Shown: positions 6,778 to 50,425 of the stretch, one piece after another
Position numbering within the stretch: the first letter of the stretch is position 1
Layout: every line of letters starts with the position of its first letter
Assembly (NCBI GenBank): GCA_023229385.1
Contig: JALNZI010000008.1
Location: 1 to 56,797 of the forward strand
Reading direction: 5' to 3'
Origin: Candidatus Omnitrophota bacterium
Lineage (GTDB): Bacteria; Omnitrophota; Gorgyraeia; Gygaellales; Profunditerraquicolaceae
DNA: 56,797 bases
The notes under the pieces: model-generated
What the model was told of the DNA's origin: nothing
Database searches by the model: none
The model's input: only the letters and a program-made list of their open reading frames with translations
Program-made: the position numbers and the translations under genes

Positions 6778-7101
6778 TTAATTGATTATTTTATTATAAA
6801 TTCCTTTAACTATTCTGTTTAATATTTGCTCATATAAATCTAATTCATATAAAGCAACTATTTTTTGATTTTCTGGATATTTTGTAGTTATATATTCTTT
6901 TCTATTTTTTAAAATATCTTTTAATAAATTAATATAATTTTGACCGGCATACCTATTAATAAAAGGATCATCTATATCTTTATTTTTCCTTTTACGTATA
7001 GTTTTTTCTAATACTTTTTCAGTATTAAATAAAGATAAATTGCTTTTATTTTTTCTAGTTCTTTTCATTATTTTAAATGTAAAGATTGTTTTTCTGCCCA
7101 A
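6778..7101 (-). CDS. hypothetical protein (possible clamp-loader accessory subunit)
   Basis: ORF immediately upstream of the clamp loader. Confidence 0.3.
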   Translation of the reverse strand: MGRKTIFTFKIMKRTRKNKSNLSLFNTEKVLEKTIRKRKNKDIDDPFINRYAGQNYINLLKDILKNRKEYITTKYPENQKIVALYELDLYEQILNRIVKGIYNKIIN

Positions 7102-8453
7102 CTATGATCAACAGGACTTGCTTCTACATCTATATCTAATGGAACAATGATCCAAGGCCAGTTTATTTGTAAATCATGACACATTATACATCGCATAACT
7201 GCAATAACGTGTTTTAATTCATCTGGTGCAATATCTAAAACAATTGAATCATGTATTTGCCCAACAATTTTACTTTTCCAATGTTCTCTTTGTTGTGCTT
7301 TTATACCTTGTATTAATGACCATAACAAACAATGAAATGCAGAACATTGAATGGGGTAATTCATAACATCATTCTTTTTCATTAAACCATGAAAAGTAAA
7401 ACCAGTCATAGTTTCTACATAACCAATATTTTGATATTGTTGCCAAATATGTTCACGCCATTCATAATATTTTTTATAACGTTTATGCCAAAAATTATAT
7501 TCAATATCTTGTATATGTTCTGTAAATAATTCTAAATTTTTAAAACCTTTACTTATTAAATGATCTGAAATATGTTTATCTTCAAAAACTATACCTTCAC
7601 CTTTTTTCCAATTTTTGGTTTTAGATAATTTACACCATTTAAAAGCTATATTTATAGCACAATTCTTATAATAGTCACCGTAAAACTGTGGAAAAATAAA
7701 ACCATTTTTAGCAGATTGTCTTAATACTGCATGTGTAGGATCATTTTTATTAAACTCTTTTAACTGAAATATTTCCATTGCCATATCCCTGTGCATATCA
7801 CCTTTCAATATATCATCAATTAAACGTTGATCTTTACAAAAACATGATGCTATCCTGACTTCAAGTTGCTTGAAATCAAGCTCAACTAATTGGTGTCCGG
7901 GACTAGGATAAATAGCAGAACGGCAAATATTCATTGCTTCTTCATCCCTTTTTGGAATATTCTGAAAATTTGGATTGCTTGATGATCCTCTGTACGAACG
8001 TACTAAATGTAAATTATAAAATGGGTGCATTATACCGTTAATAGTTTCCCTTTCAAAAGAATCTAAATAAGTATCCCTTATTTTTTTAAGTTTTTTAATT
8101 TGTAAAAGTATGTTTAATTCAGGTATATTTAATTGTACAAGTGCTTCTTCATCTGTGGAACCTTGTTGTTCTGAAGTTGTTTGTTTATCAATTTTTAGTT
8201 TTTTGACTTTGTACAAAAAATTACTTAATTGTACTGGACTGTAAATATTTATTTTACTTTTTACAGATTTTTCCCAATCTAAATAAAAATCACTTTTAAT
8301 AAATTTATGTTCAAGTTTTGTAATTTCTTTTGTTATTTCTTTTTTCTTAGCTTGAACATAATCTATATTTATGTGTAATCCAGCGGATTCAACTTTAGCT
8401 AATGCTAAAATTCCATCATGAAATAATTTATATGAATCTGTTATATTAGTCAT
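7068..8453 (-). CDS. polA: family A DNA polymerase, polymerase (palm/fingers) part
   Basis: Motif A is LVELDFKQLEVRIAS (DYSQIELR-like), motif B is RQSAKNGFIFPQFYG (RRxAKxxNFGxxYG) and motif C is VGQIHDSIV (HDE-like). NFQNIPKR is also present. Confidence 0.85.
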   Translation of the reverse strand: MTNITDSYKLFHDGILALAKVESAGLHINIDYVQAKKKEITKEITKLEHKFIKSDFYLDWEKSVKSKINIYSPVQLSNFLYKVKKLKIDKQTTSEQQGSTDEEALVQLNIPELNILLQIKKLKKIRDTYLDSFERETINGIMHPFYNLHLVRSYRGSSSNPNFQNIPKRDEEAMNICRSAIYPSPGHQLVELDFKQLEVRIASCFCKDQRLIDDILKGDMHRDMAMEIFQLKEFNKNDPTHAVLRQSAKNGFIFPQFYGDYYKNCAINIAFKWCKLSKTKNWKKGEGIVFEDKHISDHLISKGFKNLELFTEHIQDIEYNFWHKRYKKYYEWREHIWQQYQNIGYVETMTGFTFHGLMKKNDVMNYPIQCSAFHCLLWSLIQGIKAQQREHWKSKIVGQIHDSIVLDIAPDELKHVIAVMRCIMCHDLQINWPWIIVPLDIDVEASPVDHSWAEKQSLHLK

Positions 8454-8454
8454 T

Positions 8455-8739
8455 TTATTCTAATTTTCCAACTTTTTTTGAATATTGTAAATATTGTTCA
8501 ATTCTTTCAATTTTTTGAAATCTTAATGTAGGATCAGCAGTATCTAAAATATATACACTACGTAATAATTCAATTATACCTCCAAGATCATTTAATTCTT
8601 TTTCAATAATTTCTTTATTGGTAATGAGTGTAGCAGGATGATGATCATTTAAACCAAAACGTAAAGCTTTAGAAACCGCATGTATTACTTCTGCACATTC
8701 TTCAGAAAGTATTACTAATAAATGTTCTTCTCTTGTCAT
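8455..8739 (-). CDS. MazG-like all-alpha NTP pyrophosphohydrolase
   Basis: LSEECAEVIHAV (EExxE) followed about 28 residues later by EKELND (E-x2-D). Confidence 0.4.
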   Translation of the reverse strand: MTREEHLLVILSEECAEVIHAVSKALRFGLNDHHPATLITNKEIIEKELNDLGGIIELLRSVYILDTADPTLRFQKIERIEQYLQYSKKVGKLE

Positions 8740-9045: not shown

Positions 9046-10290
9046 TTAAAAAGGTAATGTTAATAATTCAAATTCTTTCATTTGTTTCATAGCTAAACGA
9101 TATTCGTTAATTGAATCATAAGCACAATATTTTAATGTTTCTTTTTTACCTTCCGGTGTTGCAAAATATTCAAGTAAACGATTCATAGAATTTGCATTCT
9201 TTTCATCAATTGCTTGTAAATAAGGTTCCACAGTACTCGAATAATCAATAATGCCAAAATTAACATAGGTTTGAAATTTTAAGTTGGTAATACCTGTACG
9301 ATTATCCAATATATGTGCTGCTAACATAGCATCATGATACCAACTTTTAACCCTAGTTTTTAGTTTAACCCAACTCCAAGTTTCTTCAAATTTCATATTA
9401 TGTGAAAACTTTTTAATATACTTATTATTTAGTAAATTAATAAAAGGTTCTCTTTTTTCAATTTCATTAGGCATTGTAAAAACATAAACATTATCTTCAT
9501 CTGTTGCAACAGAACAACAAACAATTTTATGACTTTTAGCATAAGGTTTTAAACCTGTCGTTTCATAATCAAATGCAATCATTGCATTGTTTGGTATTTG
9601 TTCTAAAACACTTAAATCTGTTATATAATTAATAGTAGGTTCTTGATAAACTGGAAATTCTTTATCTAAAATTGCTAAAGCATTTTTTAAATCTTTTTCA
9701 AATATATTTGCAACTTCTACACGATTACTTTGCTGCACAAATGATGGTAAAAAAACAGGTGCAATCCAACATTTAAGTTCCTGATCAGGTATTATAAAGC
9801 CACGCCATTTATCAATACCTTCCAAAGATTTTTTCCAACGTGAACCAATTACACTTGTTAATGCAATTTTTCCAAACAAAACAATTAACTTAGGTTTGTA
9901 TTGTTGTATGATACGAAAAATATTTAACTGGCAACAACTAATTTCCTTTGCAGTAGGTATTCTACTTTTACCTGTTTCTTTATCATAAGTAAAACAACGT
10001 ACAGCATTTATGTTTATACAATCTTTTTCAATATCAATTCCTAATTTATTATAAACATGATAAATATAATTTTCACTACCCTGAAATGGTTTACTTAATT
10101 GGTCATCTTGAAAGCTTGTAAAGCTACCAATATTCATAATACCTTTTTTAAATTGACCAAAAGGTTCCATTTTAGGGTTAGGGCAATTTATATCATTTTT
10201 ATACAAACCACAACTATAACATGAAAATCCTCTTTTTTTAACAGAGAAATTATCAATTTTTGTTTCTTGTTTTGTAAAGAATCCAGTCAT
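9046..10290 (-). CDS. polA: family A DNA polymerase N-terminal part: UDG family 4-like domain plus 3'-5' exonuclease domain
   Basis: The N-terminal Cys cluster SCYSCGLYKNDINCPNP...KGIMNIGS resembles the family-4 UDG CxxCxL...IGExPG block, with the catalytic GEAPG replaced. Exo I is IAFDYETTGL, Exo II WYHDAMLAAHILD and Exo III YCAYDSINEY. Confidence 0.7.
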   Translation of the reverse strand: MTGFFTKQETKIDNFSVKKRGFSCYSCGLYKNDINCPNPKMEPFGQFKKGIMNIGSFTSFQDDQLSKPFQGSENYIYHVYNKLGIDIEKDCININAVRCFTYDKETGKSRIPTAKEISCCQLNIFRIIQQYKPKLIVLFGKIALTSVIGSRWKKSLEGIDKWRGFIIPDQELKCWIAPVFLPSFVQQSNRVEVANIFEKDLKNALAILDKEFPVYQEPTINYITDLSVLEQIPNNAMIAFDYETTGLKPYAKSHKIVCCSVATDEDNVYVFTMPNEIEKREPFINLLNNKYIKKFSHNMKFEETWSWVKLKTRVKSWYHDAMLAAHILDNRTGITNLKFQTYVNFGIIDYSSTVEPYLQAIDEKNANSMNRLLEYFATPEGKKETLKYCAYDSINEYRLAMKQMKEFELLTLPF

Positions 10291-11315
10291 TATTGTTCTT
10301 TTATACTTAAAGTTGTAAGGTAAGTCCAGTCTTTAGTTTGAAAATACAATATATTCTTATTTAAAATACATTCATCTGTGTATGTTAAAATATCCTTTAA
10401 CATACTTGCTTTTATTGAAAAAACAATTAGTTCACCGGTATATTGTATTTTCATTTTTTCTCTAAACCAACTACTATCAGATTTACTTTTTATTGTAATA
10501 ATGTTTTCATTTATTTCAATATCAATAGTATCTACAATACCTTGTTCTTTATTGGTAAAAATAATAGCTTTATCCAAAACTTCATTTAAACTTTTTGGAA
10601 AAACAATTTTTTTACCTTTAATATTTTTTAAATATTTTGATGTGTCAACAAATGTTTCTTTATAAGTACGGCATGAAATAATTGTACCTTCTTTTGTACG
10701 AAAATGGACCCAACCGTTGCCTTCTGAAACTTTTGTAGGGTTTAATTTAATCAAAGTATTTATAGATGTTGCAGGAATTAAACAAGTATCAATTGGTAAT
10801 TCATTATCTAATTTACAATGCATTATTCTTAAATTATCACAACTTTCAATAAAACCACTTTTATTAATATGTACACAAATTAGTTTTGGATCACTTACAT
10901 CACTTGAACAGCCTATTACAACAAATTTCAAAAATTCTATAAATTTATCAGGTAATTTAAACCATTTATTTTTTACAGAAATTTCTTCATCTAAAGGTAG
11001 TTTAATTTCTTCAATTAATGTAAATCCTGAAATAGATTTACCTGCTTTTAATACAATTTCTTGTTTTTCATTTTTTGTAATATCAATTTCTTCATTTTTA
11101 ATTTTTGCAAGAAATTTATAAAGTTCTTCTGCCTTAATTGCACCGGTAATATCTAAATCAGTAATAGGATGGGATATACTTATTTCATCATTATAAGTTA
11201 CTACACAACCATTTACAAAAGCAAATGAAGTGGATTGTTCAATTATTTCTTTATTTGCTAAACCGGGTTTAACAATTTCAAGTGCATGTTTTAATTCTTC
11301 TTTATTAATTTTCAT
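10290..11315 (-). CDS. dnaN: DNA polymerase sliding clamp (beta, DnaN-like)
   Basis: Three-domain size (341 aa). The N-terminus MKINKEELKHALEIVKPGL is like DnaN MKFTVEREHLLKPLQQV, TFVDTSKYL is like FPDYRRVLP, and IQYTGELIVFSIKASMLKDIL is like VTYSGAEMEIGFNVSYVLDVL. Confidence 0.65.
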   Translation of the reverse strand: MKINKEELKHALEIVKPGLANKEIIEQSTSFAFVNGCVVTYNDEISISHPITDLDITGAIKAEELYKFLAKIKNEEIDITKNEKQEIVLKAGKSISGFTLIEEIKLPLDEEISVKNKWFKLPDKFIEFLKFVVIGCSSDVSDPKLICVHINKSGFIESCDNLRIMHCKLDNELPIDTCLIPATSINTLIKLNPTKVSEGNGWVHFRTKEGTIISCRTYKETFVDTSKYLKNIKGKKIVFPKSLNEVLDKAIIFTNKEQGIVDTIDIEINENIITIKSKSDSSWFREKMKIQYTGELIVFSIKASMLKDILTYTDECILNKNILYFQTKDWTYLTTLSIKEQ

Positions 11316-12448
11316 AATTTTATTTTGATTAAACCATATTTTAAATGGAAATATTTTTTAATAATATTTGGAAAATTCATTTTAAACCTCAATAAACTCT
11401 TATTGTTTTTACTTGCTTGCATAAATGACATTTTTTTAAAAATTGCGGGAACATTACACCATCCACTTAATGCCATATAAAAAGAAGGAAAAGGACTTTT
11501 TCTCCATTTTTCAAATTTCATTATATATGGTAAGCATTCATATTTCATTAGAATATTAAGTCTTTCAAATATTTCAACCAAATCATTTTCCCAAAACTTG
11601 TCATCATATTTGTTATTTTTATCAAATGCACAAAATATATAAAATTTAGGAATTTTGTTTGGCATATACTTTTTAAACAATTTTATTTTTTCTTCAATTA
11701 TTTCTTTATCTTCATAATTATCAAATGCAAATATGTAATCACCATCATATTTACTTTCAGATAATATTTTTGCTTTTTTTTCTGTTAATAAGCGTATATC
11801 AAGACCTTGATTATAACAAAAAGGTTTTTTAGTTTCTTGCAATTGTTTGAATATAATTTCCCAATATTTTCCAGAACCAAATACATTATCGTCTAGTAAT
11901 ATAATTTTCTTTCTTTTTTCATCAACAAATTCTGATAATGGACTATGCAATGTTACAGTTTTAACACCTCTATTGAAACAAAAAGAACATTGTCTAAAAC
12001 ATCCTCTCGTTGTGAATCCGATAGAATAATCTAAATAATTTTTAAAATATTTTCTTTGTCTTCTTTTAAATCTAATTTCATTTTTTATCCATTCATCATA
12101 TAAGTGATAATCAGGAAAGTGATGTTCTATTTCATCAGGTAATCTTGGTGTTTTTGAATACTCTGGTTCTTTTTGTCCTTTTTCATAAAAAAATCCTGAT
12201 CCACCATATTCAACAAATGGTAATTTTAAAATAAATTTTGGTATGTGTGAATCAGTAAAAACTTTTGAAACAAAAACTTTATCATATTTGCTTTGAAAAA
12301 GAGCACTTGGACTAAGCTCTTCAAAAGAAATAAGTTTTACTTTATGTCCAAGTGCTTTATAATAACCTGATAATTTCATCAAAGCAAGATTGGGAAAATT
12401 ATGATGTTTTCTACTGATTAGTTCAACATCAATCATTCCAATATACAT
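11312..12448 (-). CDS. radical SAM enzyme with N-terminal B12-binding-like domain
   Basis: GFTTRGCFRQCSFCFN is a CxxxCxxC radical-SAM cluster motif, and an N-terminal Rossmann-like block MIDVELISRKHHNFPNLALMKLSGYYKALGHKV precedes it. Confidence 0.65.
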   Translation of the reverse strand: MYIGMIDVELISRKHHNFPNLALMKLSGYYKALGHKVKLISFEELSPSALFQSKYDKVFVSKVFTDSHIPKFILKLPFVEYGGSGFFYEKGQKEPEYSKTPRLPDEIEHHFPDYHLYDEWIKNEIRFKRRQRKYFKNYLDYSIGFTTRGCFRQCSFCFNRGVKTVTLHSPLSEFVDEKRKKIILLDDNVFGSGKYWEIIFKQLQETKKPFCYNQGLDIRLLTEKKAKILSESKYDGDYIFAFDNYEDKEIIEEKIKLFKKYMPNKIPKFYIFCAFDKNNKYDDKFWENDLVEIFERLNILMKYECLPYIMKFEKWRKSPFPSFYMALSGWCNVPAIFKKMSFMQASKNNKSLLRFKMNFPNIIKKYFHLKYGLIKIKL

Positions 12449-12467
12449 GATTTATTTATTTGGATTT

Positions 12468-13511
12468 TTATATTTTTTTTACATCTTCTGCATGTTTGTA
12501 GAAGTTTTTTTCGGTGGTAAGAATCATGTACCAAAAACGTTTACTCTGTTTGTGCCAAAAGTACTTTTCAAGTTTTCCTTTTCTTTTTTCTCCTGTTTTG
12601 TCAGTAAAAGTTACCGTATCACCTTTAGCAAATCCTTTAGGCCATTCAACTTTAGCATGTTTTTCTACTTGTTCTTTAACTTTTTTAGCAGGTTTTTCTA
12701 CCTTTTTCTCTGTGGTAAGACCTTGTTCAGCAAGAATATCAAGCATTTTCTTTTTAAGGGAAAATACACTTGATTTAGCTAGTAATGATTTACGTTTCTT
12801 TTTAAACTCGTCATTTTCCTTTACCAAATTTTGCAAATCAGCTTTTTTAGCTGTTTCTTTTACCGTTATTGCAAGATTTTCTTCTTCATCCTCTTCTTCA
12901 TCCTCTTCTTCTTCTGGTTCAGGAACAATTATCTTTTTATTTTTTTTAACGGGTTCAGGTTTATCTTTTTCATTACCTTTTTTTACTGGTGGTAAGTCTT
13001 CATCTTCATCTTCATCAGGTTCAGGTTCAATTACTTTTTTACCTTTTTTTATAGGAATAGGTTCAGGTTTATCTTTTTCATTACCTTTTTTTACTGGTGG
13101 TAAGTCTTCATCTTCATCTTCATCTTCATCAGCATCTTCGTCCTCATCAGCATCTTCGTCCTCATCCTCGTCTTCATCAGCATCTTCGTCCTCATCAGCA
13201 TCTTCATCCTCATCTTCATCCTGATCAGCATCTTCGTCTTCATCAGCATCTTCATCCTCATCTTCATCCTGATCAGCATCTTCGTCTTCATCCTCTGTGC
13301 CATACTTTTCAGCTAAGCCGTCAAAAATGGCCTGTGTAGTTTTGGTAAATTTGTCACCTTCTTCAAACAGTTGAAGAACAGTATCATAAAGTTCCTTTGC
13401 AAATTCATCAAGTTCCATTTCATTATACGCTATTGCAGGATCAACTCCCACAACTTTGTCCAGCTCTTTATAAGCTGCAACCAATTCCTTTTTTGAATAA
13501 TTTTTTGCCAT
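12468..13511 (-). CDS. acidic-repeat protein (EDEDEDADxDE tract plus LPPVKKGNEKDKPEP repeats) with a basic C-terminal domain
   Basis: About 75 aa are purely D/E/A/Q repeats. LPPVKKGNEKDKPEP(I/V) occurs twice, each followed by an acidic run, and there is a C-terminal K-rich domain. Confidence 0.55.
   Translation of the reverse strand: MAKNYSKKELVAAYKELDKVVGVDPAIAYNEMELDEFAKELYDTVLQLFEEGDKFTKTTQAIFDGLAEKYGTEDEDEDADQDEDEDEDADEDEDADQDEDEDEDADEDEDADEDEDEDEDADEDEDADEDEDEDEDLPPVKKGNEKDKPEPIPIKKGKKVIEPEPDEDEDEDLPPVKKGNEKDKPEPVKKNKKIIVPEPEEEEDEEEDEEENLAITVKETAKKADLQNLVKENDEFKKKRKSLLAKSSVFSLKKKMLDILAEQGLTTEKKVEKPAKKVKEQVEKHAKVEWPKGFAKGDTVTFTDKTGEKRKGKLEKYFWHKQSKRFWYMILTTEKNFYKHAEDVKKI
12880..13300. 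repeat. tandem coding repeats (GAT/GAA/GAC-rich 48-bp units, plus a roughly 60-bp unit at about 12950 and 13055)
   Basis: gatcagcatcttcgtcttcatcagcatcttcatcctcatcttcatcct is repeated. ggttcaggtttatctttttcattacctttttttactggtggtaagtcttcatcttcatc is also repeated. Confidence 0.8.
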
Positions 13512-41916: not shown

Positions 41917-43002
41917 ATGTTAGATGTTAATGTTGATTTGATGGGTAATGGTGGCGGACAAGGTGAAATTGCCGCTTATATGCAACAGAATAACAGATTA
42001 GACCCTGCTGTATTGCGCCCGTATAGGGGAACTGACGGAAAAGCTTATATTTCAGTTTTTAAAGGAGGTGATCCTAAAAAACCTGAAAATTATTCTGTTA
42101 TTAATGTAAATGAAGCTACACTTCGTCCGTATGAGTGGAGACAATTAGATGAAGCTGTTATTACTATTGCTGAAAATAGGTTAGTTGGAGTAAATGATCT
42201 TATTTCCAATGGACTAACTTATAATTTGGGCAATGCTATGGGTACGACCGTACTTGAAACACATACTATATCAGATGCAATGGAAGCTGATCTTACTATG
42301 GATGCTGTTTCAAGGGCTAAAGGTGATCGTCCTGTTTTTGGAACTAAGTACACTCCAATTCCAATAATTCATGTGGATTATGAAATTAATGCAAGGGTAC
42401 TTGCTTCAAGTCGTTCACTTGGCAATCCTTTGGATACTTCATCTGCTGAACGTGCTGCACGTAAAGTAGCAGAAAAATTGGAAGATATGTTGTTTACTAA
42501 CACTACTTATGGATTTGGTGGTGGAACTATTTATAGTTACATTAACTATCCTGATAGAAGTTTAATATCACTTACTACTTATGGTAATTGGGCTACTAGT
42601 ACTACTACCGGAGCAAAAATCATTGAAAGTGTACTTGCAATGAAACAAGCTTCTATTGATGATAATTATTTTGGTCCTTGGAAGTTGTATGTACCAACGA
42701 ATTTTGAAACTCGTTTGGATAATGATTATGATACGGTAACTCCGGGTACGACTATACGTGAAAGAATATTAAAAATTGGTGGTATTCAATCGGTTACTGT
42801 GGCTGATCATCTTCCTGCTTCAAATGTTTTGTTAGTACAAATGACTAGTAATGTTGTAAGATTAATTCGTGGAATTGGTCTTACAAATGTTGAATGGCAA
42901 ACTGAAGGAAAATTCGTTAATAAATACAAAGTATTAACTATACAAGTTCCTCAAATTCGTTCTGATTATAACGAAAAAACTGGAATTGTACACATGAGTT
43001 AA
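41917..43002 (+). CDS. major capsid protein
   Basis: Size (361 aa), position, the strongest SD in the window (aaaggaggggaaaattATG), and a terminator-like hairpin plus T8 immediately downstream. Confidence 0.6.
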   Translation: MLDVNVDLMGNGGGQGEIAAYMQQNNRLDPAVLRPYRGTDGKAYISVFKGGDPKKPENYSVINVNEATLRPYEWRQLDEAVITIAENRLVGVNDLISNGLTYNLGNAMGTTVLETHTISDAMEADLTMDAVSRAKGDRPVFGTKYTPIPIIHVDYEINARVLASSRSLGNPLDTSSAERAARKVAEKLEDMLFTNTTYGFGGGTIYSYINYPDRSLISLTTYGNWATSTTTGAKIIESVLAMKQASIDDNYFGPWKLYVPTNFETRLDNDYDTVTPGTTIRERILKIGGIQSVTVADHLPASNVLLVQMTSNVVRLIRGIGLTNVEWQTEGKFVNKYKVLTIQVPQIRSDYNEKTGIVHMS

Positions 43003-43059: not shown

Positions 43060-43515
43060 ATGGTAGAACGTAAAAGAATTAGAAACGATGTAACAATTAA
43101 AATGCCTATTGTTGAAGAACAAATAGTTACGGATGAAGAAAAAGAAAAAATTGCTATTGAAGAAAAAGCATTTAATGAAGAAGTAACAACAGTAAAGTCA
43201 GAACTAATTGAACGTAAACCGATACGATGGAAAAAAGTAGGTGGTGGAAGTTTTTCTTTAAATAATCGGTTTATTAAACCGGGACAAATATTTTTAGCAT
43301 TTCCAGAAGAAATACCTGTTCAATTTCGTGATCTTGTTATTCCTTTAGAAGAAAAACCTTTACCTTTAAATATTGAAGAAATTAAAAAGAAATCATCTTA
43401 TAAGTTAGAGGAAAAATCTGATGGATGGGATATTTTAGATTCTTTTGGTAAGGTTTTAAATGAAAAACCAATGGAGAAAGAAGTTGCTGAACGTATTTTA
43501 GTTATGTTACAATGA
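43060..43515 (+). CDS. charged 151-aa protein carrying a roughly 50-aa module also present inside the 1084-aa glycosyltransferase fusion
   Basis: RKPIRWKKVGGGSFSLNNRFIKPGQIFLAFPEEIPVQFRDLVIPLEE here, versus IRKPIRWKKMGNGSFLFNNCYIKKNQVFTAFSEDIPKQFRDVIIPLEE at about 47815-47960. Confidence 0.5.
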   Translation: MVERKRIRNDVTIKMPIVEEQIVTDEEKEKIAIEEKAFNEEVTTVKSELIERKPIRWKKVGGGSFSLNNRFIKPGQIFLAFPEEIPVQFRDLVIPLEEKPLPLNIEEIKKKSSYKLEEKSDGWDILDSFGKVLNEKPMEKEVAERILVMLQ

Positions 43516-44207
43516 TATGGTCCGTACCTAAAATATGGGAAGGTGGTGATGCTTGGATATTAGGTGGTGGACCATCTATTATTGATCAATTTAATATACC
43601 TAAAGAGGTGTCAGAAAAGGTATTATTGAAACAATTACCTTTGTCTGCATATTCAAGTTATATGAAACTTATTCATGATAAACATGTTATAGGTATAAAT
43701 ATAGCTTATTTAATAGGTAATTGGATTGATATTGTATTTTTTGGAGATAAAAATTTTTATCTTACACATAAGGAAGGTTTGTTTAATTTTCCGGGATTAA
43801 AAATTAGCTGTAATCCAGAAGTTGAAAAATGTTTTTGGATAAAATATTTAGCACAAGATAAAGCTAAACATTTAGGAATTACAACAAATCCAAAAATGAT
43901 TAGTTGGAATAAAAATAGTGGAGCTGCTGCTATAAGTTTGGCTGTTCATACAGGAGTTAAAAGAATATTTCTTTTAGGTTTTGATATGAAATTGAATGAT
44001 GCAAATAAACAGCATTGGCATAGTGAATATAAAAATCCACAAGAACCATTAAATTTAAGAAAGTTGCCATTTCAAAGACATTTAACTGGTTTTCCTAGTA
44101 TTTATAAAGATGCAAAGAATCTAAATGTACAAATTTACAATGTAAATTCAGATAGTGCAATTACACAATTTCCATGTATTAATTTAAAAGAAGCTTTGGA
44201 ATTATGA
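43512..44207 (+). CDS. putative Rossmann-type glycosyl/sugar-nucleotide transferase (DUF115/MptE-like)
   Basis: GGDAWILGGGPS...HVIGINIAYL...GAAAISLAVHTGVKRIFLLGFDM. The GxGPS and LGxD blocks are typical of that family. Confidence 0.35.
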   Translation: MIWSVPKIWEGGDAWILGGGPSIIDQFNIPKEVSEKVLLKQLPLSAYSSYMKLIHDKHVIGINIAYLIGNWIDIVFFGDKNFYLTHKEGLFNFPGLKISCNPEVEKCFWIKYLAQDKAKHLGITTNPKMISWNKNSGAAAISLAVHTGVKRIFLLGFDMKLNDANKQHWHSEYKNPQEPLNLRKLPFQRHLTGFPSIYKDAKNLNVQIYNVNSDSAITQFPCINLKEALEL

Positions 44208-45409
44208 AAATTATAAATTGTCCAATTAGTGGTAGTGAAAAAGGGGTAGAATTTCTTAATTTAGGAAAAATACCACTTGTAAATAATTTATGTGATACAA
44301 AACAAGACGCATTAAATTGTGAAAAGTTTTCATTAGCTGTTCAGTTTTTTCCTGAAAGTAAAGTTACTTGTTTAACAGAAACGGTGGATAAGGACAATTT
44401 ATTTCTTCATTATTTGTATCAATCGGGTGTAAATAAGCCTTATTTAGATCATTGTGCTGAAATGTATGATTATTTATCCCATATTATTGATTTTAAAGAC
44501 AAAGATGTTGTATTAGACATTGGTGGAAATGATGGTAGTTTATTAAAAGAATTTAGAAAGGAAAATCAAAATCTTCATTATATAAATGTTGATTGCAGTC
44601 GTAGTTTTATTGATGTTAATCGAGAATCTGGAATTGAATATATTAACGAATATTTTGGTGAAAGTATATCTTTACCATATAAAGCTAAGTTGATTACATC
44701 AACAAATGTATTTCAACACACGGAACCCATACGTTCATTCGTAAAAGGTATTTGTAGGAATTTGTCAAATGAAGGTGTTTGGTGTTTGGAATTTCCTTAT
44801 ATTCTTACAACACTTGCAAATGATAATTATGATCAGGTTTATCATGAACATGTGTATTATTTTTGTTTACAGAATATAATTGATATAACAAAACAAGAAG
44901 GCTTAAAAGTCATTAATGTTTCTTATCATGATATGCACGCTGGAACATTGCGAGTTTTAATTGTGAAAGAATCTTCACGCAGACAACCAGATAATACAAT
45001 ACTTTCTTTTCTTAATTTGGAAAAAACACTAACAAAAGAATACTATTTGAAGTGGGGATCACAAACAACATCGAAAATTAAGCAATATCAGGTAGATATG
45101 AAAAGACTTGTTATGAATGGTGCAAAGGTTGCTTGTTTTGGTGCTGCTGCAAAAGGGTGCATCTTTTTAAATACTTGTGAAATAGATAACACAATGGTAC
45201 AATTTATTATTGATGATACTCCTTTTAAGCAAGGTAAATTTGTTCCGGGAACAGGAATAGAAGTTGTAAGCAGAAAAATATTAAAAGATGTTAAAATAGA
45301 TTATATGATTATTCTTGCTCATAATTTTAAAGATTATATAATAAATTCATTAAAGGGGCAATATAATGGTAAATATATTTTAATGTTTCCTGATATGAAA
45401 ATATTATAA
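44204..45409 (+). CDS. sugar C-methyltransferase family protein (TylC3/EvaC-like; N-terminal Zn-like domain, SAM-binding domain, C-methyltransferase C-terminal domain)
   Basis: NCPISGSEKGVEFLNLGKIPLVNNL resembles CxxCGSxxLxxVLDLGxQPLAN. Motif I is VVLDIGGNDGSLL. The C-terminal domain is CFGAAAKGCIFLN...IDDTPFKQGKFVPGTGIEVVS...MIILAHNFKDYI. Confidence 0.65.
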   Translation: MKIINCPISGSEKGVEFLNLGKIPLVNNLCDTKQDALNCEKFSLAVQFFPESKVTCLTETVDKDNLFLHYLYQSGVNKPYLDHCAEMYDYLSHIIDFKDKDVVLDIGGNDGSLLKEFRKENQNLHYINVDCSRSFIDVNRESGIEYINEYFGESISLPYKAKLITSTNVFQHTEPIRSFVKGICRNLSNEGVWCLEFPYILTTLANDNYDQVYHEHVYYFCLQNIIDITKQEGLKVINVSYHDMHAGTLRVLIVKESSRRQPDNTILSFLNLEKTLTKEYYLKWGSQTTSKIKQYQVDMKRLVMNGAKVACFGAAAKGCIFLNTCEIDNTMVQFIIDDTPFKQGKFVPGTGIEVVSRKILKDVKIDYMIILAHNFKDYIINSLKGQYNGKYILMFPDMKIL

Positions 45410-45432: not shown

Positions 45433-46290
45433 ATGCTAACAGCTAGCAATATCGAAAAAATTTGTATTGTCACAGTATTTGATAGACATTATAAAGAAGC
45501 AGGGAAAACTTTGTTTAATTCAATCAGAAGGCATACAAATTGTGATGGAATAGATTTTAAAGTTATTACATCAGATGAGGAAGTATTAAATGAATGGGGA
45601 AAGGATAATTGTTATTTTGTAACGGATAATATTAAAAATAGGTATAAGAATGTTCAATATTCTAAGGATTTACCTATTGAGCGATATGCTTTATCATGGT
45701 ACAGATATGAAATATTCAATATGACTGATTACGATAGAGTAATATGTATTGATTCTGATTGTATATGTGTTCAAGATATTAGTTATTTATTTAGTGAAGA
45801 ATTAAATCAGTATGATCTTATTTCTGTTGAAGATCATTTTGTATCAAAAATACTACCTAATTTATATTCTAAATTAGAAAAGAATGGTTGGAACTTTACA
45901 AATTTATACAAAAGGGTTTCTTTAAAACAAGTTGATATTCAACCTGCTGTACTTGTAATTAATAAGAATGTCATAAATAGTATATGGTATAATGAGTTAT
46001 TAGCTTATGCTAATAATACGGGTTTTACTTATTCTATTGATCAAGGTATTCTAAATGATTTTATTTATCAAAAAAATATAAATATCAAATTACTACCGTT
46101 GGAATGGAATTATCAAGACCTTTATGCTATTCGTTGTTCAGAACTTGCAGTAGTTAATCCAATTATAATTCATTGTCAAGAATCCAAACCTTTTAAACTT
46201 GTTAGAAAAAATGTAGATGTACGAATACAAAAATTTTATGATCAATGGTGGTATGAATATGATTATGCCAAATCATTGAAAACAACAACA
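45433..46290 (+). repeat. internal duplication, copy 1 of the GT8-like domain
   Basis: About 60-70% nt identity to 46294-47110. It includes an exact 42-bp match at 45775-45816 (gatattagttatttatttagtgaagaattaaatcagtatgat). Confidence 0.8.
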
Positions 46291-48687
46291 AGGATGAAAG
46301 GTAAGATATGTATAACTACTACATTTGATTATAACTATAAACATGCAGGACAAACTTTGCTTAGTTCAATCAGAAGACATACAAATTGTGATGGAATTGA
46401 TTTTAAAATAATTACTAACGATCCAAAGGTTGTGGCTGAGTTTGGAGCAGAAAACTGTCATATTATTACTCCTGAAATACAAGCCAATTATAATAACGTG
46501 AAATATATTACTGATATTCCTAAAGAACAATATTATTCTTCGTGGTATCGTTATGAGATGTTTAATTTTGAGGGATATGATCGGGTAATATGTATTGATT
46601 CTGATTGCATTTGTATTGAAGATATTAGTTATTTATTTAGTGAAGAATTAAATCAGTATGATTTAATATCAACAGAGGACATGATTGTTTCTCACATGTT
46701 TAAACAACATATTCCTTCGTTAGAGAAGAACTACGGATTAAATTTAGTAGGTTTACGACGTAGAATAGCTGCTGGTCAGGTTGATATTCAACCGGCATTA
46801 CTTGTTGCTAATAAAAAAATTGTAAATAATAAATGGTATAAGCAATTAATAACTTATGCCAATACAACAAATCATACTTATTCTATTGACGAAGGTATCT
46901 TAAATGATTTTATTTATTTGAAAAGATTGAACATTAAGATATTACCAATGGAATGGAATTATATGGATACTTATGGTGCTCAAATATTGGAACTTCCTGA
47001 ACCTAAAAAACCTTTTATTGTGCATTGTCAAGAATCTAAACCTTTTAAAAAGGATAAAGCAGATGTTAATGTGCGAATACACAAATGGCATAATAAATGG
47101 TGGGAAGAAGCTAATCATATAAAATATTCAACTATTGTTGCTATTATTGTTTGGAATAGATTTGAAAATCTAAAATTATGGGTAAATGCTTGGAATCAAT
47201 GTATTCAAAGTGATGTTAAGTTAATAGTTGTTCACAATCTTGAAAGTGACAATAATAGATATTCTCAGTTATGTAAAGATAACGGAATAATGTATATTCC
47301 AAGAGAAAATAAAGGTTTTGATATTGGGGCTTTTCAAGATGTATGTAAAGAAAGATTGGAAGGTTTTCCTAATGATTGGGAAAATTTAATCTGGATTACT
47401 GATGATTGTATTCCAATGGCAAAAGATTTTGTTGAACAATTTTTAAAATGTTTACCAAAAATACCTTGTTATGAAATATCTCAGGAAGTAAAAACTCATG
47501 TTAGAACTACCGGATTTTTAGTCACCAAAGAAATATCTAAAAAACTTGTTTTTCCAAAAGACCCGATAGAGAATAGGGAAGATTGCTATCAATTTGAACA
47601 TAAAGGCTTTTTACAAGTTAAAAATATGTATGAACAGATTGTTAGTATGGGAAAACAACCAGTAATGGTTAATAAGGATTTAAGGTTATCTCCATTATGG
47701 GATTCAGGAGTAAGATGGCAACTTAAATTAATGGGTAAACATGAAGCTATTTTTCCATTTATTAAAATAAATGTTGAACCGATAAAAGTAGATGTTAAAC
47801 TAGTTGAAGCAGAATTACCTATAAGAAAACCAATTCGATGGAAAAAAATGGGTAATGGTTCCTTTTTATTTAATAATTGTTATATTAAAAAAAATCAAGT
47901 ATTTACTGCATTTTCTGAAGATATTCCAAAACAGTTTCGTGATGTAATTATTCCATTAGAAGAAATAGTTTCGGAAATTAAAAAAGTTATTCCAGTTGAA
48001 CCGGTTAAATTAAATAGTAAACCGATTATATATAATGTTTTGGATGAGTTGGCTATTAAGCATAAATCAGATAAGTCTTCTAGGTATCATAATTACGCAG
48101 TAAAATATGATAAAATATTATTTCCGTTTAGAGAATCATTTTCATCAATTTTAGAAATTGGTGTATCACAGGGACAGTCTACAAAAATGTGGACCGATTA
48201 TTTTGAGAATGCTACTATTCACGGTGCAGATATTGAAAAAGGTTCTAAAATTTGTGAATCATATTCTAATAGAGTAAAATTTCATGAACTTGACCAACGA
48301 GATTTAGCACAACTTAAAAATCTTGAACAATTTTCTCCATTTGATTTTGTAATAGATGATGGTAATCATTTTTGGTTTGAACAAATTCTTACATTTGAGG
48401 CTTTGTTTCCTTATGTTAGAAAAGGAGGAATATATATTGTTGAAGATACTACTACTTCTTATTGGGAGGAATATAAAAATAATCCGATTTCACCCGTAGA
48501 ATATTTTAAGACATTGGTAGATGAAGTTCATCTTAAAGGGGCAAGAGGAAATATTCCTATAAATCCCCCGCAGGAATTTGGTAATTGGGAAAAAGGGTGG
48601 CATCGTAGGGAAGATTGTTTTGAATCAGTACCTTTATTTGAATCAATTCAATTTATGAATGGTTTTATTGTAATTTATAAAAGATAA
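45433..48687 (+). CDS. 1084-aa multidomain fusion: GT8-like + GT8-like + GT-A (GT2-like) + shared 50-aa module + TylF/MycF-like O-methyltransferase
   Basis: The two GT8 units each carry the donor-site DxD block VICIDSDCIC(V/I)(Q/E)DI and the HxxGxxKPF block (IIHCQESKPF and IVHCQESKPF). The GT-A block is IVAIIVWNRFENLKLWVNAW...LIWITDDCIP. The O-methyltransferase has motif I ILEIGVSQGQSTKMW, then DFVIDDGNH and GGIYIVEDT. Confidence 0.7.
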   Translation: MLTASNIEKICIVTVFDRHYKEAGKTLFNSIRRHTNCDGIDFKVITSDEEVLNEWGKDNCYFVTDNIKNRYKNVQYSKDLPIERYALSWYRYEIFNMTDYDRVICIDSDCICVQDISYLFSEELNQYDLISVEDHFVSKILPNLYSKLEKNGWNFTNLYKRVSLKQVDIQPAVLVINKNVINSIWYNELLAYANNTGFTYSIDQGILNDFIYQKNINIKLLPLEWNYQDLYAIRCSELAVVNPIIIHCQESKPFKLVRKNVDVRIQKFYDQWWYEYDYAKSLKTTTRMKGKICITTTFDYNYKHAGQTLLSSIRRHTNCDGIDFKIITNDPKVVAEFGAENCHIITPEIQANYNNVKYITDIPKEQYYSSWYRYEMFNFEGYDRVICIDSDCICIEDISYLFSEELNQYDLISTEDMIVSHMFKQHIPSLEKNYGLNLVGLRRRIAAGQVDIQPALLVANKKIVNNKWYKQLITYANTTNHTYSIDEGILNDFIYLKRLNIKILPMEWNYMDTYGAQILELPEPKKPFIVHCQESKPFKKDKADVNVRIHKWHNKWWEEANHIKYSTIVAIIVWNRFENLKLWVNAWNQCIQSDVKLIVVHNLESDNNRYSQLCKDNGIMYIPRENKGFDIGAFQDVCKERLEGFPNDWENLIWITDDCIPMAKDFVEQFLKCLPKIPCYEISQEVKTHVRTTGFLVTKEISKKLVFPKDPIENREDCYQFEHKGFLQVKNMYEQIVSMGKQPVMVNKDLRLSPLWDSGVRWQLKLMGKHEAIFPFIKINVEPIKVDVKLVEAELPIRKPIRWKKMGNGSFLFNNCYIKKNQVFTAFSEDIPKQFRDVIIPLEEIVSEIKKVIPVEPVKLNSKPIIYNVLDELAIKHKSDKSSRYHNYAVKYDKILFPFRESFSSILEIGVSQGQSTKMWTDYFENATIHGADIEKGSKICESYSNRVKFHELDQRDLAQLKNLEQFSPFDFVIDDGNHFWFEQILTFEALFPYVRKGGIYIVEDTTTSYWEEYKNNPISPVEYFKTLVDEVHLKGARGNIPINPPQEFGNWEKGWHRREDCFESVPLFESIQFMNGFIVIYKR
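46294..47110 (+). repeat. internal duplication, copy 2 of the GT8-like domain
   Basis: Exact 42-bp match at 46621-46662, with parallel protein blocks HAGQTLLSSIRRHTNCDGIDFKIIT and EAGKTLFNSIRRHTNCDGIDFKVIT. Confidence 0.8.
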
Positions 48688-48688
48688 A

Positions 48689-49384
48689 ATGCTTGTATTA
48701 ATCACACCAACAGGAAGTCGTCCAAAGCAATTTGAATTATGTATGCAATGGATGAAGCAACAAACTTATACAGGTAAAGTTGTTTGGATTGTTATAGATG
48801 ATTGTTTTCCTAAAACAATAGATATTCTTAATGAAGATTTTCGTGAAAATTGGTTAATAATTAAAAAATACCCAAAACCTTTATGGGAAATTGGGAAAAA
48901 TACACAGGGTAGAAATTTAAAAATTGCTATTGATACTATTAATGCTTTTCCTAAAGATTGGGTTGAAACAATTTATATAATTGAAGATGATGATTATTAT
49001 AAACCTGAATATTTACAAACAATGAAAGACCGTTTGAAAGGGTTTACATTAGCAGGTGAGGTTAAAACAGTATATTATAACATTAAGTATAAAATGTTTA
49101 AGGAAATGGCTAATACAAGCCATGCAAGCCTATTTCAAATATGCTTTACAGCTGATGCTTTACCTATACTTGAAAAATATCTAAATGATGGATTTATTGA
49201 TATTAATTTTTGTAAAAATATAAAGAATATTAATTTATTTGAAGCTAATAAATTAGCAATAGGTATAAAAGGTTTACCTGGAAGACCTGGAATAGGAATT
49301 GGGCATAGACAAAAAGGAATTTTAGATATAAATTTAAACAAGTTAAAAGAATTAATTGGTGAAGATTATAAATATTATTTATAA
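48689..49384 (+). CDS. putative GT-A-fold glycosyltransferase
   Basis: N-terminal LITPTGSRPKQFELCMQWMKQQ (GT-A beta1-alpha1) and an acidic EDDDYY (DxD-like) block. Confidence 0.4.
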   Translation: MLVLITPTGSRPKQFELCMQWMKQQTYTGKVVWIVIDDCFPKTIDILNEDFRENWLIIKKYPKPLWEIGKNTQGRNLKIAIDTINAFPKDWVETIYIIEDDDYYKPEYLQTMKDRLKGFTLAGEVKTVYYNIKYKMFKEMANTSHASLFQICFTADALPILEKYLNDGFIDINFCKNIKNINLFEANKLAIGIKGLPGRPGIGIGHRQKGILDINLNKLKELIGEDYKYYL

Positions 49385-50073
49385 TGCTAAGAAAAATACA
49401 ACATAATCCTATTTTCATAACCGGAGTTGAACGTTCGGGTAGTACTATTATTGCAAGAATTTTAGATTTGTGTAATGTAAGTTCTGGAAATTGTAATAAT
49501 ATGTTTGAAAATGTTATTATTAATGAATTTAATACAGATTATTTGAAGAATTTTTCATTAACTTTTCCTAAAACAGCAGATATTGACATACCAATAAGAT
49601 GGAAAGGTGCAGTTGATGGTGTTTTATTGGTTGAGAATTGCCTTGACAAGCCCTATATGGTTAAATCTGCTATGTTAGCAAGGTTATGGCCAATATGGAA
49701 TTATGCTTATCCTGATGCCAAATGGTTAATAGTTCGTAGGCGTACAGGAGACGTAATACAGTCTTGTTTAAAAACAGGTTATATGAAAACTTTTAAATCT
49801 GCTGAAAATTTATTATCTTTGGGTCTTACAAAAGAAGCAGAAGGTTGGCTTTGGTGGATACATCAATACGAAAATAAATTTGTTGAAATGATTAAAGCTG
49901 GTTTAAATTGTAGAATTATATGGCCTGAAAGAATGGTTACTGGCAATTATGAACAAATGTATGAAACAATTGAATGGTTAGGTTTAAAATGGAATGAACA
50001 AATACCAGAAATTATTGATCCATTATTAAGTAAAAGTAGGGAGGGTATTATATATGAGAACAACAGTAGATGA
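49384..50073 (+). CDS. sulfotransferase family protein
   Basis: The 5'-PSB-like motif is PIFITGVERSGSTIIARIL (compare PxFIxGxxRSGTT). The 3'-PB-like motif is AKWLIVRRRTGDVIQS (RxxxDxxxS). Confidence 0.6.
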   Translation: MLRKIQHNPIFITGVERSGSTIIARILDLCNVSSGNCNNMFENVIINEFNTDYLKNFSLTFPKTADIDIPIRWKGAVDGVLLVENCLDKPYMVKSAMLARLWPIWNYAYPDAKWLIVRRRTGDVIQSCLKTGYMKTFKSAENLLSLGLTKEAEGWLWWIHQYENKFVEMIKAGLNCRIIWPERMVTGNYEQMYETIEWLGLKWNEQIPEIIDPLLSKSREGIIYENNSR

Positions 50074-50425
50074 TGTAATTGATATTTTAGATAATACAGA
50101 ATTAGATGATTCTGTTATTGAAAAATATATTAATAGTGCAAATGTATTTGTTACAGGTACATTAGGTACAACTTTGAGTGTGTCTATTCTTACAGAAATT
50201 GAAAAATGGATGGCTGCACACATGATTGTTTCAACTCGTGAACGTATGTCTAAAGATGAAGGTGCTGGTGGGGCTTATATTAAATGGTCTGGTCAATGGG
50301 GTATGGGTTTAAACTTCACACCTTATGGTCAAATGGCAGTTGCTTTGGATACCACAGGAGTATTAAATAACATAGCAAAGGGTAAATCTAATGCTTGGGT
50401 TCATGCTATACCTAATTTTGATTAA
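50054..50425 (+). CDS. head-tail connector/adaptor protein (gp6-like)
   Basis: Size, position and an SD of gtagggagggtattatatATG. It has the SVSILTEIEKWMAAHMI helix typical of head-tail adaptors. Confidence 0.45.
   Translation: MRTTVDDVIDILDNTELDDSVIEKYINSANVFVTGTLGTTLSVSILTEIEKWMAAHMIVSTRERMSKDEGAGGAYIKWSGQWGMGLNFTPYGQMAVALDTTGVLNNIAKGKSNAWVHAIPNFD

Follow-up and report, generated by a model that had tools for sequence, protein, structure and literature searches.

Why should a phage carry a sulfotransferase gene among its capsid and neck genes? The question is raised by a stretch of 56,797 nt, called the window throughout (contig JALNZI010000008.1 of GenBank assembly GCA_023229385.1, assigned to Candidatus Omnitrophota bacterium), which is a siphovirus-type genome fragment of 29% G+C. 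An earlier note on this DNA had claimed that one open reading frame (ORF) on the plus strand encodes a sulfotransferase with motifs for binding 3'-phosphoadenosine 5'-phosphosulfate (PAPS), that it ends a glycosylation cassette and that it lies directly upstream of the head-tail connector gene. The start, stop, strand and length of the ORF were all borne out (Table 1). Synteny, co-occurrence and a fusion protein show that the sulfotransferase is functionally part of the modification island that it terminates. The explanation that we favour, and to which we give about an even chance, is late PAPS-dependent sulfation of a virion-associated glycan by this terminal enzyme of the island.

The protein matched the Pfam family Sulfotransfer_3 (PF13469) with 33.1 bits (E 8.8e-8), above the curated gathering threshold of 27 bits. 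Searches of NCBIfam and PHROG with the protein gave no match, and a single-sequence search of the Protein Data Bank (PDB) returned noise alone. The family profile was needed to retrieve the best PDB matches, human TPST1 and TPST2, which were weak (E 0.008–0.05, best 0.0077) and covered positions 7–206. An AlphaFold2 model calculated from the homologue alignment had a pLDDT of 92.2 and a pTM of 0.88, and Foldseek matched it to TPST2 with an E value of 4e-6. The profile search and the structure prediction that the earlier note had called for therefore agreed: profile, AlphaFold2 and Foldseek all indicated a TPST-like sulfotransferase fold, which could be distinguished from that of P-loop kinases. 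With 16–20% identity and the weak profile scores given above, the protein does not belong to TPST or RaxST by sequence. Sequence and model together support its assignment to the PAPS-dependent sulfotransferase superfamily (PF13469), as a member with a TPST-like fold that is not a TPST by sequence.

The two PAPS-binding-like motifs, PIFITGVERSGSTI and RRRTGDVIQS, were located where they had been claimed and were under strong constraint in an alignment of 59 homologues of 50–75% identity. The alignment contained 29 invariant columns, which included both motifs, E42 and K94. The invariant residues were T13, R17, S18 and G19 in the 5'-phosphosulfate-binding (5'-PSB) loop and R118, R119, D123 and S127 in the 3'-phosphate-binding (3'-PB) motif. 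When the entire 56.8 kb window was translated in six frames, a loose 5'-PSB pattern had a single occurrence. Within the loop, GVERSGST (residues 14–21) followed strand 10–14 of the model and was aligned to GVPRSGTT of TPST. R119 and S127, 8 residues apart, were placed by the model after strand 113–117 and inside helix 121–130, respectively, and were in register with the Arg and Ser of TPST 'MVRDGRASVHS' in the profile alignment.

The catalytic set in the TPST2 structure consists of an Arg in the PSB loop, a Glu, a Lys and a Ser. The counterparts of the Arg (R17) and the Lys (K94) were invariant in the phage family, and K94 was aligned at most one residue from the Lys of TPST 'CNKDPF'. The Glu was out of register. 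E42, which is accompanied by the invariant M40, was the sole candidate for the catalytic base; the Glu-Glu of TPST lies 5–6 residues earlier in the HMMER alignment, and because of this offset E42 is treated here as a putative base. Apart from this displaced Glu, the phage protein differs from TPST1 and TPST2 (PDB 5wri and 3ap1; PF13469) in being viral and cytoplasmic, in having no membrane anchor and in falling about 60–70 residues below the size of the TPST catalytic domain. We infer that the phage sulfotransferase uses PAPS.

The protein proved to belong to a large family. Among 5.8 billion proteins searched there were 827 homologues, and the best 120 of them were 211–237 aa long, nearly all with PF13469 and with no name beyond 'hypothetical protein'. 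When 1.84 billion cluster representatives were searched exhaustively with the profile, there were 1,312 relatives at E ≤ 0.001 (clusters at 50% identity) and 515 at E ≤ 1e-10. Almost all were single-domain proteins of 210–240 aa, and none of ten that were looked up carried a name. In all 89 loci that were fetched, the close members belonged to a single lineage of uncultured siphoviruses, sampled in metagenomes of landfills and digesters. The claim that sulfotransferases are rare in phages held for cultured phages, for which tblastn against 50,697 GenBank phage records and the PHROG search gave no match with this protein. It did not hold for uncultured phages: IMG/VR contained 298 loci with a relative of the gene, and phage genes with PF13469 have been reported elsewhere (PMC10580990).

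Among the few longer relatives, two were fusions to other domains. P0245 (329 aa, on a 1.3 kb contig) combined the sulfotransferase with an MptE-like domain, which scored 37.9 bits on PF01973 (cut-off 34.6). P0286 (780 aa, on a 74 kb contig) contained at least five TPR repeats, a middle domain and a C-terminal sulfotransferase domain. P0286 is probably cellular, and if so the wider sulfotransferase family is not strictly viral. The N-terminal half of a further protein, P0222, looked GT-A-like by eye (EDD motif), matched no Pfam or island hidden Markov model (HMM) and was not used as evidence.

In the window the sulfotransferase gene is the last of six island genes that lie between the genes for the major capsid protein and the head-tail adaptor (Table 1). 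The identity of the adaptor, on which the claimed position directly upstream of a connector gene depended, was backed by a match of its family profile to PDB 8qqn, 'HK97 gp6-like/SPP1 gp15-like head-tail connector' (E 0.0028), and by DUF4054 in 25 of 30 family members (best E 1.7e-7). The capsid protein had at most 37% identity to proteins of cultured phages. That the gene ends a glycosylation cassette was correct and proved to be general, with GT8, MptE/Maf-like, GT2, GT11, methyltransferase and sugar-nucleotide dehydratase domains encoded upstream of it.

Table 1. Positions of the sulfotransferase gene, its motifs and the neighbouring genes in the window.
Feature	Position (nt)	Strand	Remarks
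Major capsid protein gene, upstream boundary of the island	41917..43002	+	DUF6260 (E 2.6e-21), Linocin_M18; tblastn to annotated major capsid proteins, 36% identity
o151b, orphan two-domain protein	43060..43515	+	Sole constant component of the island
MptE/Maf-like (sialyltransferase-like) transferase	43512..44207	+	First enzyme of the island, conserved; phrog_4603 'alpha-2,3-sialyltransferase' (E 1e-29)
Sugar C-methyltransferase-type gene	44204..45409	+	Methyltransf_14 (E 2.7e-27); Methyltransf_13, Methyltransf_23
1084-aa multi-domain enzyme	45433..48687	+	Two GT8-like domains, middle domain, o151b-like motif, CmcI-type methyltransferase
o231, probable GT-A-type glycosyltransferase	48689..49384	+	Usually precedes the sulfotransferase gene, whose start is overlapped by the o231 stop (TAATG)
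Sulfotransferase gene	49384..50073	+	ATG 49384, TGA 50071-50073, 229 aa; final gene of the island
5'-phosphosulfate-binding loop PIFITGVERSGSTI	49408..49449	+	Residues 9-22; aligned to GVPRSGTTL of TPST1/2
Glu42 codon, candidate catalytic base	49507..49509	+	Invariant; precedes helix 44-57 of the model
Lys94 codon	49663..49665	+	Invariant; terminates strand 91-94
3'-phosphate-binding motif RRRTGDVIQS	49735..49764	+	Residues 118-127
Shine-Dalgarno site AGGGAGGG of the adaptor gene	50038..50045	+	Inside the sulfotransferase ORF
Head-tail adaptor gene (HK97 gp6/SPP1 gp15-like)	50054..50425	+	Overlaps the sulfotransferase gene by 20 nt

The genes of the island are closely packed. The junctions were −4, −4, +23, +1, −1 and −20 nt, and no convincing plus-strand terminator was found across the island. 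The adaptor gene starts within the sulfotransferase gene, as the earlier note had stated, but its conclusion that the enzyme is co-translated with structural proteins could not be kept: the overlap and the Shine-Dalgarno (SD) site inside the upstream ORF indicate co-transcription and possible translational coupling. In 26 relatives this junction ranged from a 37-nt overlap to a 33-nt gap, except for two with an inserted gene. Among the gene starts of the window between 41897 and 52250, AGGAGG-type SD sites were present only at the capsid, adaptor, tail-terminator and tail-tube genes, and all six island genes and two neck genes had no strong SD site. The difference is consistent with low-abundance enzymes set among high-abundance structural proteins, and fits a split between stoichiometric and catalytic expression built into one operon. 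The sulfotransferase is probably expressed late, together with the structural genes.

The other enzymes of the island were assigned with differing clarity. The MptE-like protein of the window scored 22.9 bits on PF01973, below the cut-off of 34.6, and its profile found only sub-significant matches in the PDB. The product of o231 matched nothing in Pfam, PHROG or NCBIfam; its E99-D100-D101-D102 stretch was invariant and its PDB profile matches were weak (KfiA, E 0.2; SpsA, E 1.2). The 1084-aa protein matched Glyco_transf_8 in two stretches (E 1.8e-10), Methyltransf_24 at residues 907–1006 and the methyltransferase family phrog_21658 (E 3e-23). By eye its tandem GT8-like domains are about 50% identical, and a third domain has no assignment. 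Parts of this protein are separate genes in relatives, for example the 427-aa ORFs of loci L009 and L014.

To describe the island beyond the window, the loci fetched through the sulfotransferase gene were compared. An adaptor homologue lay immediately downstream of the sulfotransferase gene in 81 of the 82 first-fetched loci. The hypervariable island measured 1.1–9.2 kb, and the interval from capsid to sulfotransferase gene 1.9 to 7.9 kb with 3 to 11 genes. All 41 complete islands contained an o151b-like gene, 37 a separate MptE-like gene and 31 an o231-like gene; the remaining four without a separate MptE-like gene encoded a protein of about 1,000 aa after o151b, and the MptE-like probe matched its region. 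The other genes were variable and fell into 57 loose families. When 134 non-redundant island ORFs were searched for Pfam families, the matches comprised GT2 (17), Methyltransf_24 (9), MptE-like PF01973 (8), NAD-epimerase/dehydratase (5), Polysacc_synt_2 (4), GT11 (3) and FkbM (3), together with C-methyltransferase, TupA-like ATP-grasp and radical SAM domains. The sulfotransferase gene was 43–75% identical between loci, on par with the neck genes, and the middle of the island was not conserved. In the outgroup Brevundimonas phage MaInes the capsid gene was followed by one 120-aa ORF and then by the adaptor homologue, and the o151b profile found nothing in this interval, which indicates that the island is a lineage-specific insertion. 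By its content the island is a hypervariable glycan-synthesis cassette with conserved ends.

Since these loci had been selected through the sulfotransferase gene itself, a second sample was drawn through the neck gene o134. This sample, taken from 392 relatives with the most divergent clade at its centre, was scored by means of HMMs and contained 41 complete capsid-to-adaptor intervals. The combination of o151b, MptE-like and sulfotransferase genes was found in 26 of these, and the same three with o231 in another 8. Three intervals had o151b, MptE-like and o231 genes without the sulfotransferase gene, three had o151b and MptE-like genes alone, and one (L119) had o151b and the sulfotransferase gene alone. 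The MptE-like gene was thus present in 40 of the 41 intervals and in 34 of the 35 that were sulfotransferase-positive, and o151b was the only universal component. With the partial intervals included (25 with the sulfotransferase gene, 2 without), 60 of 68 carried the gene, which makes it frequent but optional.

L119 also differs in its tail. Its tail-tube protein (10087..10776) has a C-terminal Big_4 Ig-like domain (E 3.8e-13), which the 151-aa tail-tube protein of the window does not have; the Big_4 domain is an alternative route to virion-surface decoration.

Ten loci contained an insert between the sulfotransferase and adaptor genes. In nine of them (L077, L125/126, L128, L142–144 and L147/148, about five genotypes) the insert encoded a P-loop protein of 121–135 aa, for example at 8088..8453 of L125 and 4715..5110 of L142. 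It scored 65.8 and 58.1 bits on APS_kinase (PF01583, cut-off 21.1), and all 19 of its PDB matches were kinases of adenosine 5'-phosphosulfate (APS) or PAPS synthases (best E 6.6e-11). The P-loop, LDGDxxR and S-x-x-x-P-x-R motifs were aligned. The insert is therefore predicted to be a mini APS kinase (CysC, PF01583). It is shorter than the stand-alone kinases and kinase domains of solved structure (173–211 aa) and does not amount to a complete domain. No ATP sulfurylase gene was seen alongside it. The kinase gene followed the sulfotransferase gene directly and was never present in loci without it, which gives strong contextual support for PAPS-dependent sulfation and goes part of the way towards settling the point of PAPS supply raised in the earlier note.

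Two further ORFs were noted at this junction. In L125 a hydrophobic ORF of 79 aa (8435..8674), with two membrane spans by eye and no Pfam match, lies between the mini APS kinase and adaptor genes. The tenth insert, in L121 (2300..2953), lies exactly at the sulfotransferase/adaptor junction; it was ruled out as a sulfation gene because it encodes a GIY-YIG homing endonuclease, and it indicates that the junction tolerates insertions.

These observations can be joined into the following mechanism. A compact, cytoplasmic, PAPS-dependent sulfotransferase would be made late and in small catalytic amounts from a transcript shared with the capsid, neck and tail genes. A protein associated with the virion would receive a glycan from the island transferases, and the sulfotransferase would move sulfate from PAPS onto this glycan. 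The sugar coat of the particles would then be methylated, negatively charged and variable between strains. In the window phage PAPS would be taken from the host, and some relatives would add an APS kinase of their own. The island product probably ends in or on the virion; the virion is taken as the target because of the fixed slot in the morphogenesis operon and the precedent of mycobacteriophages. The acceptor is most likely the island-built glycan, which is the weakest step of the mechanism.

Several observations weigh against sulfation of an island-built glycan. The nearest solved structures, the TPSTs, sulfate protein tyrosine and not sugars. Six of the 41 complete intervals hold the island without the sulfotransferase gene, which would make sulfation an optional decoration. 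L119 has no glycosyltransferase gene in the 16.5 kb from terminase to tape measure and carries only o151b and an intact sulfotransferase gene between its capsid and adaptor genes, so that a phage-built glycan is not obligatory. In six proteins (capsid, o151b, adaptor, neck, tail terminator and tail tube), no Tyr, Ser or Thr column was kept with the sulfotransferase gene and lost without it, in comparisons with only 5–8 negative sequences. The supply of PAPS is also affected: only positions 3–99 of the 152 of the APS kinase profile were matched, the lid segment of canonical enzymes seems to be absent from the mini kinase, and the window and its fetched flanks contain no PAPS-synthesis genes.

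The main rival is direct sulfation of protein, by which a TPST/RaxST-like enzyme would act on Tyr (or Ser/Thr) in o151b or in one of the virion proteins, independently of the glycosyltransferases. L119 speaks for such an enzyme, and the occurrence of the island modules in all combinations suggests independent modifications of a shared target. The TPST-like structural neighbours and the fusion of P0286 to TPR protein-interaction repeats point in the same direction. Yet the invariant Glu is out of register with the Glu-Glu of TPST, no conserved Tyr follows the sulfotransferase gene through the lineage, an MptE-like transferase accompanies that gene in all but one of the sulfotransferase-positive intervals and a sulfotransferase-MptE fusion exists. 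We consider direct protein sulfation rather unlikely, but a serious rival. If the enzyme is instead no active sulfotransferase, it could be a P-loop protein that has degenerated and serves as a structural component or chaperone, or else a nucleotide kinase. The loop of RSGST type is that of sulfotransferases and has no Walker-A Lys, which argues against a kinase; both PAPS motifs and the candidate catalytic residues are invariant in 59 sequences, and relatives pair the gene with an APS kinase. This possibility is scarcely credible.

The target may also lie outside the particle. The island could alter a surface polysaccharide, lipid or metabolite of the host, with superinfection block or release as the benefit. 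Elsewhere, phage PF13469 genes of unclear function have been classed with the auxiliary metabolic genes (PMC10580990), viral cysC is known as a gene of this kind, and GT2, GT8, GT11 and sugar-nucleotide dehydratases are typical of surface-polysaccharide clusters. However, the island slot is fixed between the capsid and adaptor genes of the morphogenesis operon in every locus, the sulfotransferase gene is co-inherited with the neck genes, expression shortly before lysis would leave scant time to remodel an envelope, and no flippase, polymerase or lipid-carrier transferase was found in the top 25 Pfam families of the 134 island ORFs. Host-directed modification is therefore improbable. Still less is to be said for DNA hypermodification, in which the island enzymes would decorate modified bases of the phage DNA. 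Several replication-module ORFs of the window have no annotation, and phage glycosyltransferases that add diverse glycans to DNA are known (bioRxiv 10.1101/2023.12.21.572611). However, no hydroxymethylase, TET-like oxygenase or DNA methyltransferase is encoded in the annotated part of the replication arm, the island belongs to the structural operon and not to a nucleotide-metabolism module, and the acceptors to be expected of an MptE/Maf-like enzyme are proteins or oligosaccharides. We regard DNA as a very improbable target.

Taken together, the data suggest that the particles of these phages bear sulfate, on sugars or on proteins. A wider statement, which leaves the chemistry of the coat open between a glycan and a sulfotyrosine-type modification, is that an entire lineage of uncultured siphoviruses of anaerobic habitats coats its particles with methylated and sulfated material that varies between strains, by means of a self-contained island that includes o151b, in some members with PAPS synthesis of its own. 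We hold this statement tentatively, at slightly less than an even chance. As part of it, o151b may be a new orphan acceptor or adaptor protein.

The remainder of the window agrees with a siphovirus. The morphogenesis arm on the plus strand encodes a portal, a Mu-F-like protein, DUF2213, capsid, neck, tail-terminator and tail-tube proteins. The replication/recombination arm on the minus strand encodes RuvC, RecA, a clamp-loader-like ATPase, a split family-A polymerase, a DnaB-like helicase, a primase-like protein and an SNF2 helicase. The window is not a complete genome, since the tape-measure ORF leaves its 3' end and no terminal repeat is present. No tRNAs were found in it. The GH108 endolysin and the strong SD sites suggest a bacterial host.

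The apparently split polymerase occupies 7068..8453 and 9046..10290 on the minus strand, with the polymerase domain in one ORF and a 3'-5' exonuclease and a uracil-DNA-glycosylase-superfamily domain in the other; a 94-aa ORF (8455..8739) and a gap separate the two. At 10290..13511, also on the minus strand, three consecutive ORFs of 341–378 aa had no Pfam match.

An IMG/VR fragment (L007) of 100% identity came from a leachate well of a landfill in Southern Ontario (IMG metagenome 3300037067; bioRxiv 10.1101/2024.05.30.596742). Other relatives were from the same landfill and from biogas digesters. Seven matches among 185,579 species genomes (L083–L089) were contigs of metagenome-assembled genomes (MAGs) assigned to Hyphomicrobiales, Izemoplasma, Firmicutes, Paceibacterota, Bacteroidales and Gallionellaceae. 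The structural module of this phage recurs in six of them, all of useful length; the seventh is no more than a fragment. The scatter over six unrelated phyla and the shared phage module look like mis-binned phage; these contigs are probably phage DNA mis-binned into MAGs, and caution is advised to users of those MAGs.

To our knowledge, the only covalent decoration on record for phage particles is the glycosylation of a few mycobacteriophages, which alters antibody recognition. Literature text searches retrieved no paper describing phage-particle sulfation. New in the present work are a large unnamed sulfotransferase subfamily whose close members are all in one phage lineage, the fixed position of its gene at the end of a hypervariable glycosylation island within the capsid-neck operon, the occasional pairing with a mini APS kinase and the orphan o151b module. 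The enzymology is ordinary, and the implied sulfated virions are unreported. If the particle is indeed sulfated, it would be the first phage virion of this kind, and the island would stand for a new class of system for the post-translational modification of virions. A sulfotransferase gene in a capsid-neck operon, sometimes with an APS kinase gene, predicts strongly anionic, sulfated virion surfaces, which could influence adsorption to particles, mucus and host polysaccharides, recognition by receptors and defence systems, and the behaviour of the particles as colloids in digesters and leachate. A testable function is provided for more than 1,300 sequence clusters now called 'hypothetical protein', and at least some viral cysC genes would be recast as suppliers of sulfate donor instead of helpers of sulfur assimilation. 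The compact 220-aa enzyme could serve as a minimal sulfotransferase scaffold, and the mini APS kinase may be of interest by itself as a minimal APS kinase.

Four known systems can be set beside the window. In rhizobial Nod-factor sulfation the NodH sulfotransferase is accompanied by NodP/NodQ, with ATP sulfurylase and APS kinase. The nine kinase-bearing relatives resemble this system in that a sulfotransferase gene lies beside its own supply of activated sulfate. The NodH system is bacterial and symbiotic, has a lipo-chitooligosaccharide acceptor and uses a full-length kinase, whereas the phage kinase has 121–135 aa. Flagellin glycosylation islands with Maf/MptE-like (PF01973) transferases are hypervariable, lie beside the structural gene and give strain-variable protein glycans. 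Like the island of the window, they combine an MptE/Maf-like transferase with sugar-modifying enzymes next to the gene of a surface polymer. The Maf islands target flagellin, whereas the neighbours in the window are capsid and neck genes and its PF01973 match is below the cut-off.

Among phages, PF13469 genes occur in OM43-phage-like metagenomic genomes and in Synechococcus phage S-SRM01, where their function is unclear (PMC10580990). They share with the window gene a phage-encoded Sulfotransfer_3 domain of no known function. Those genes are scattered and auxiliary metabolic, whereas the window gene is found throughout its lineage in a fixed morphogenesis slot and shows no detectable BLAST similarity to them (tblastn, 50,697 phage records). 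The capsid glycans of mycobacteriophages Che8 and Rita, described as a 'glycan shield' (Freeman et al. 2023, as cited in PMC11256854), are a precedent for a decorated particle. Both these phages and the window phage encode glycosyltransferases; capsid decoration is believed or shown there, whereas the virion is the probable target here. In the related cluster F1 phage Maravista the glycosyltransferase genes are near the 3' end of the genome, and the available text of PMC11256854 mentions no sulfotransferase for it. The island of the window lies instead between the capsid and adaptor genes and adds methyltransferases, a sulfotransferase and, in relatives, an APS kinase.

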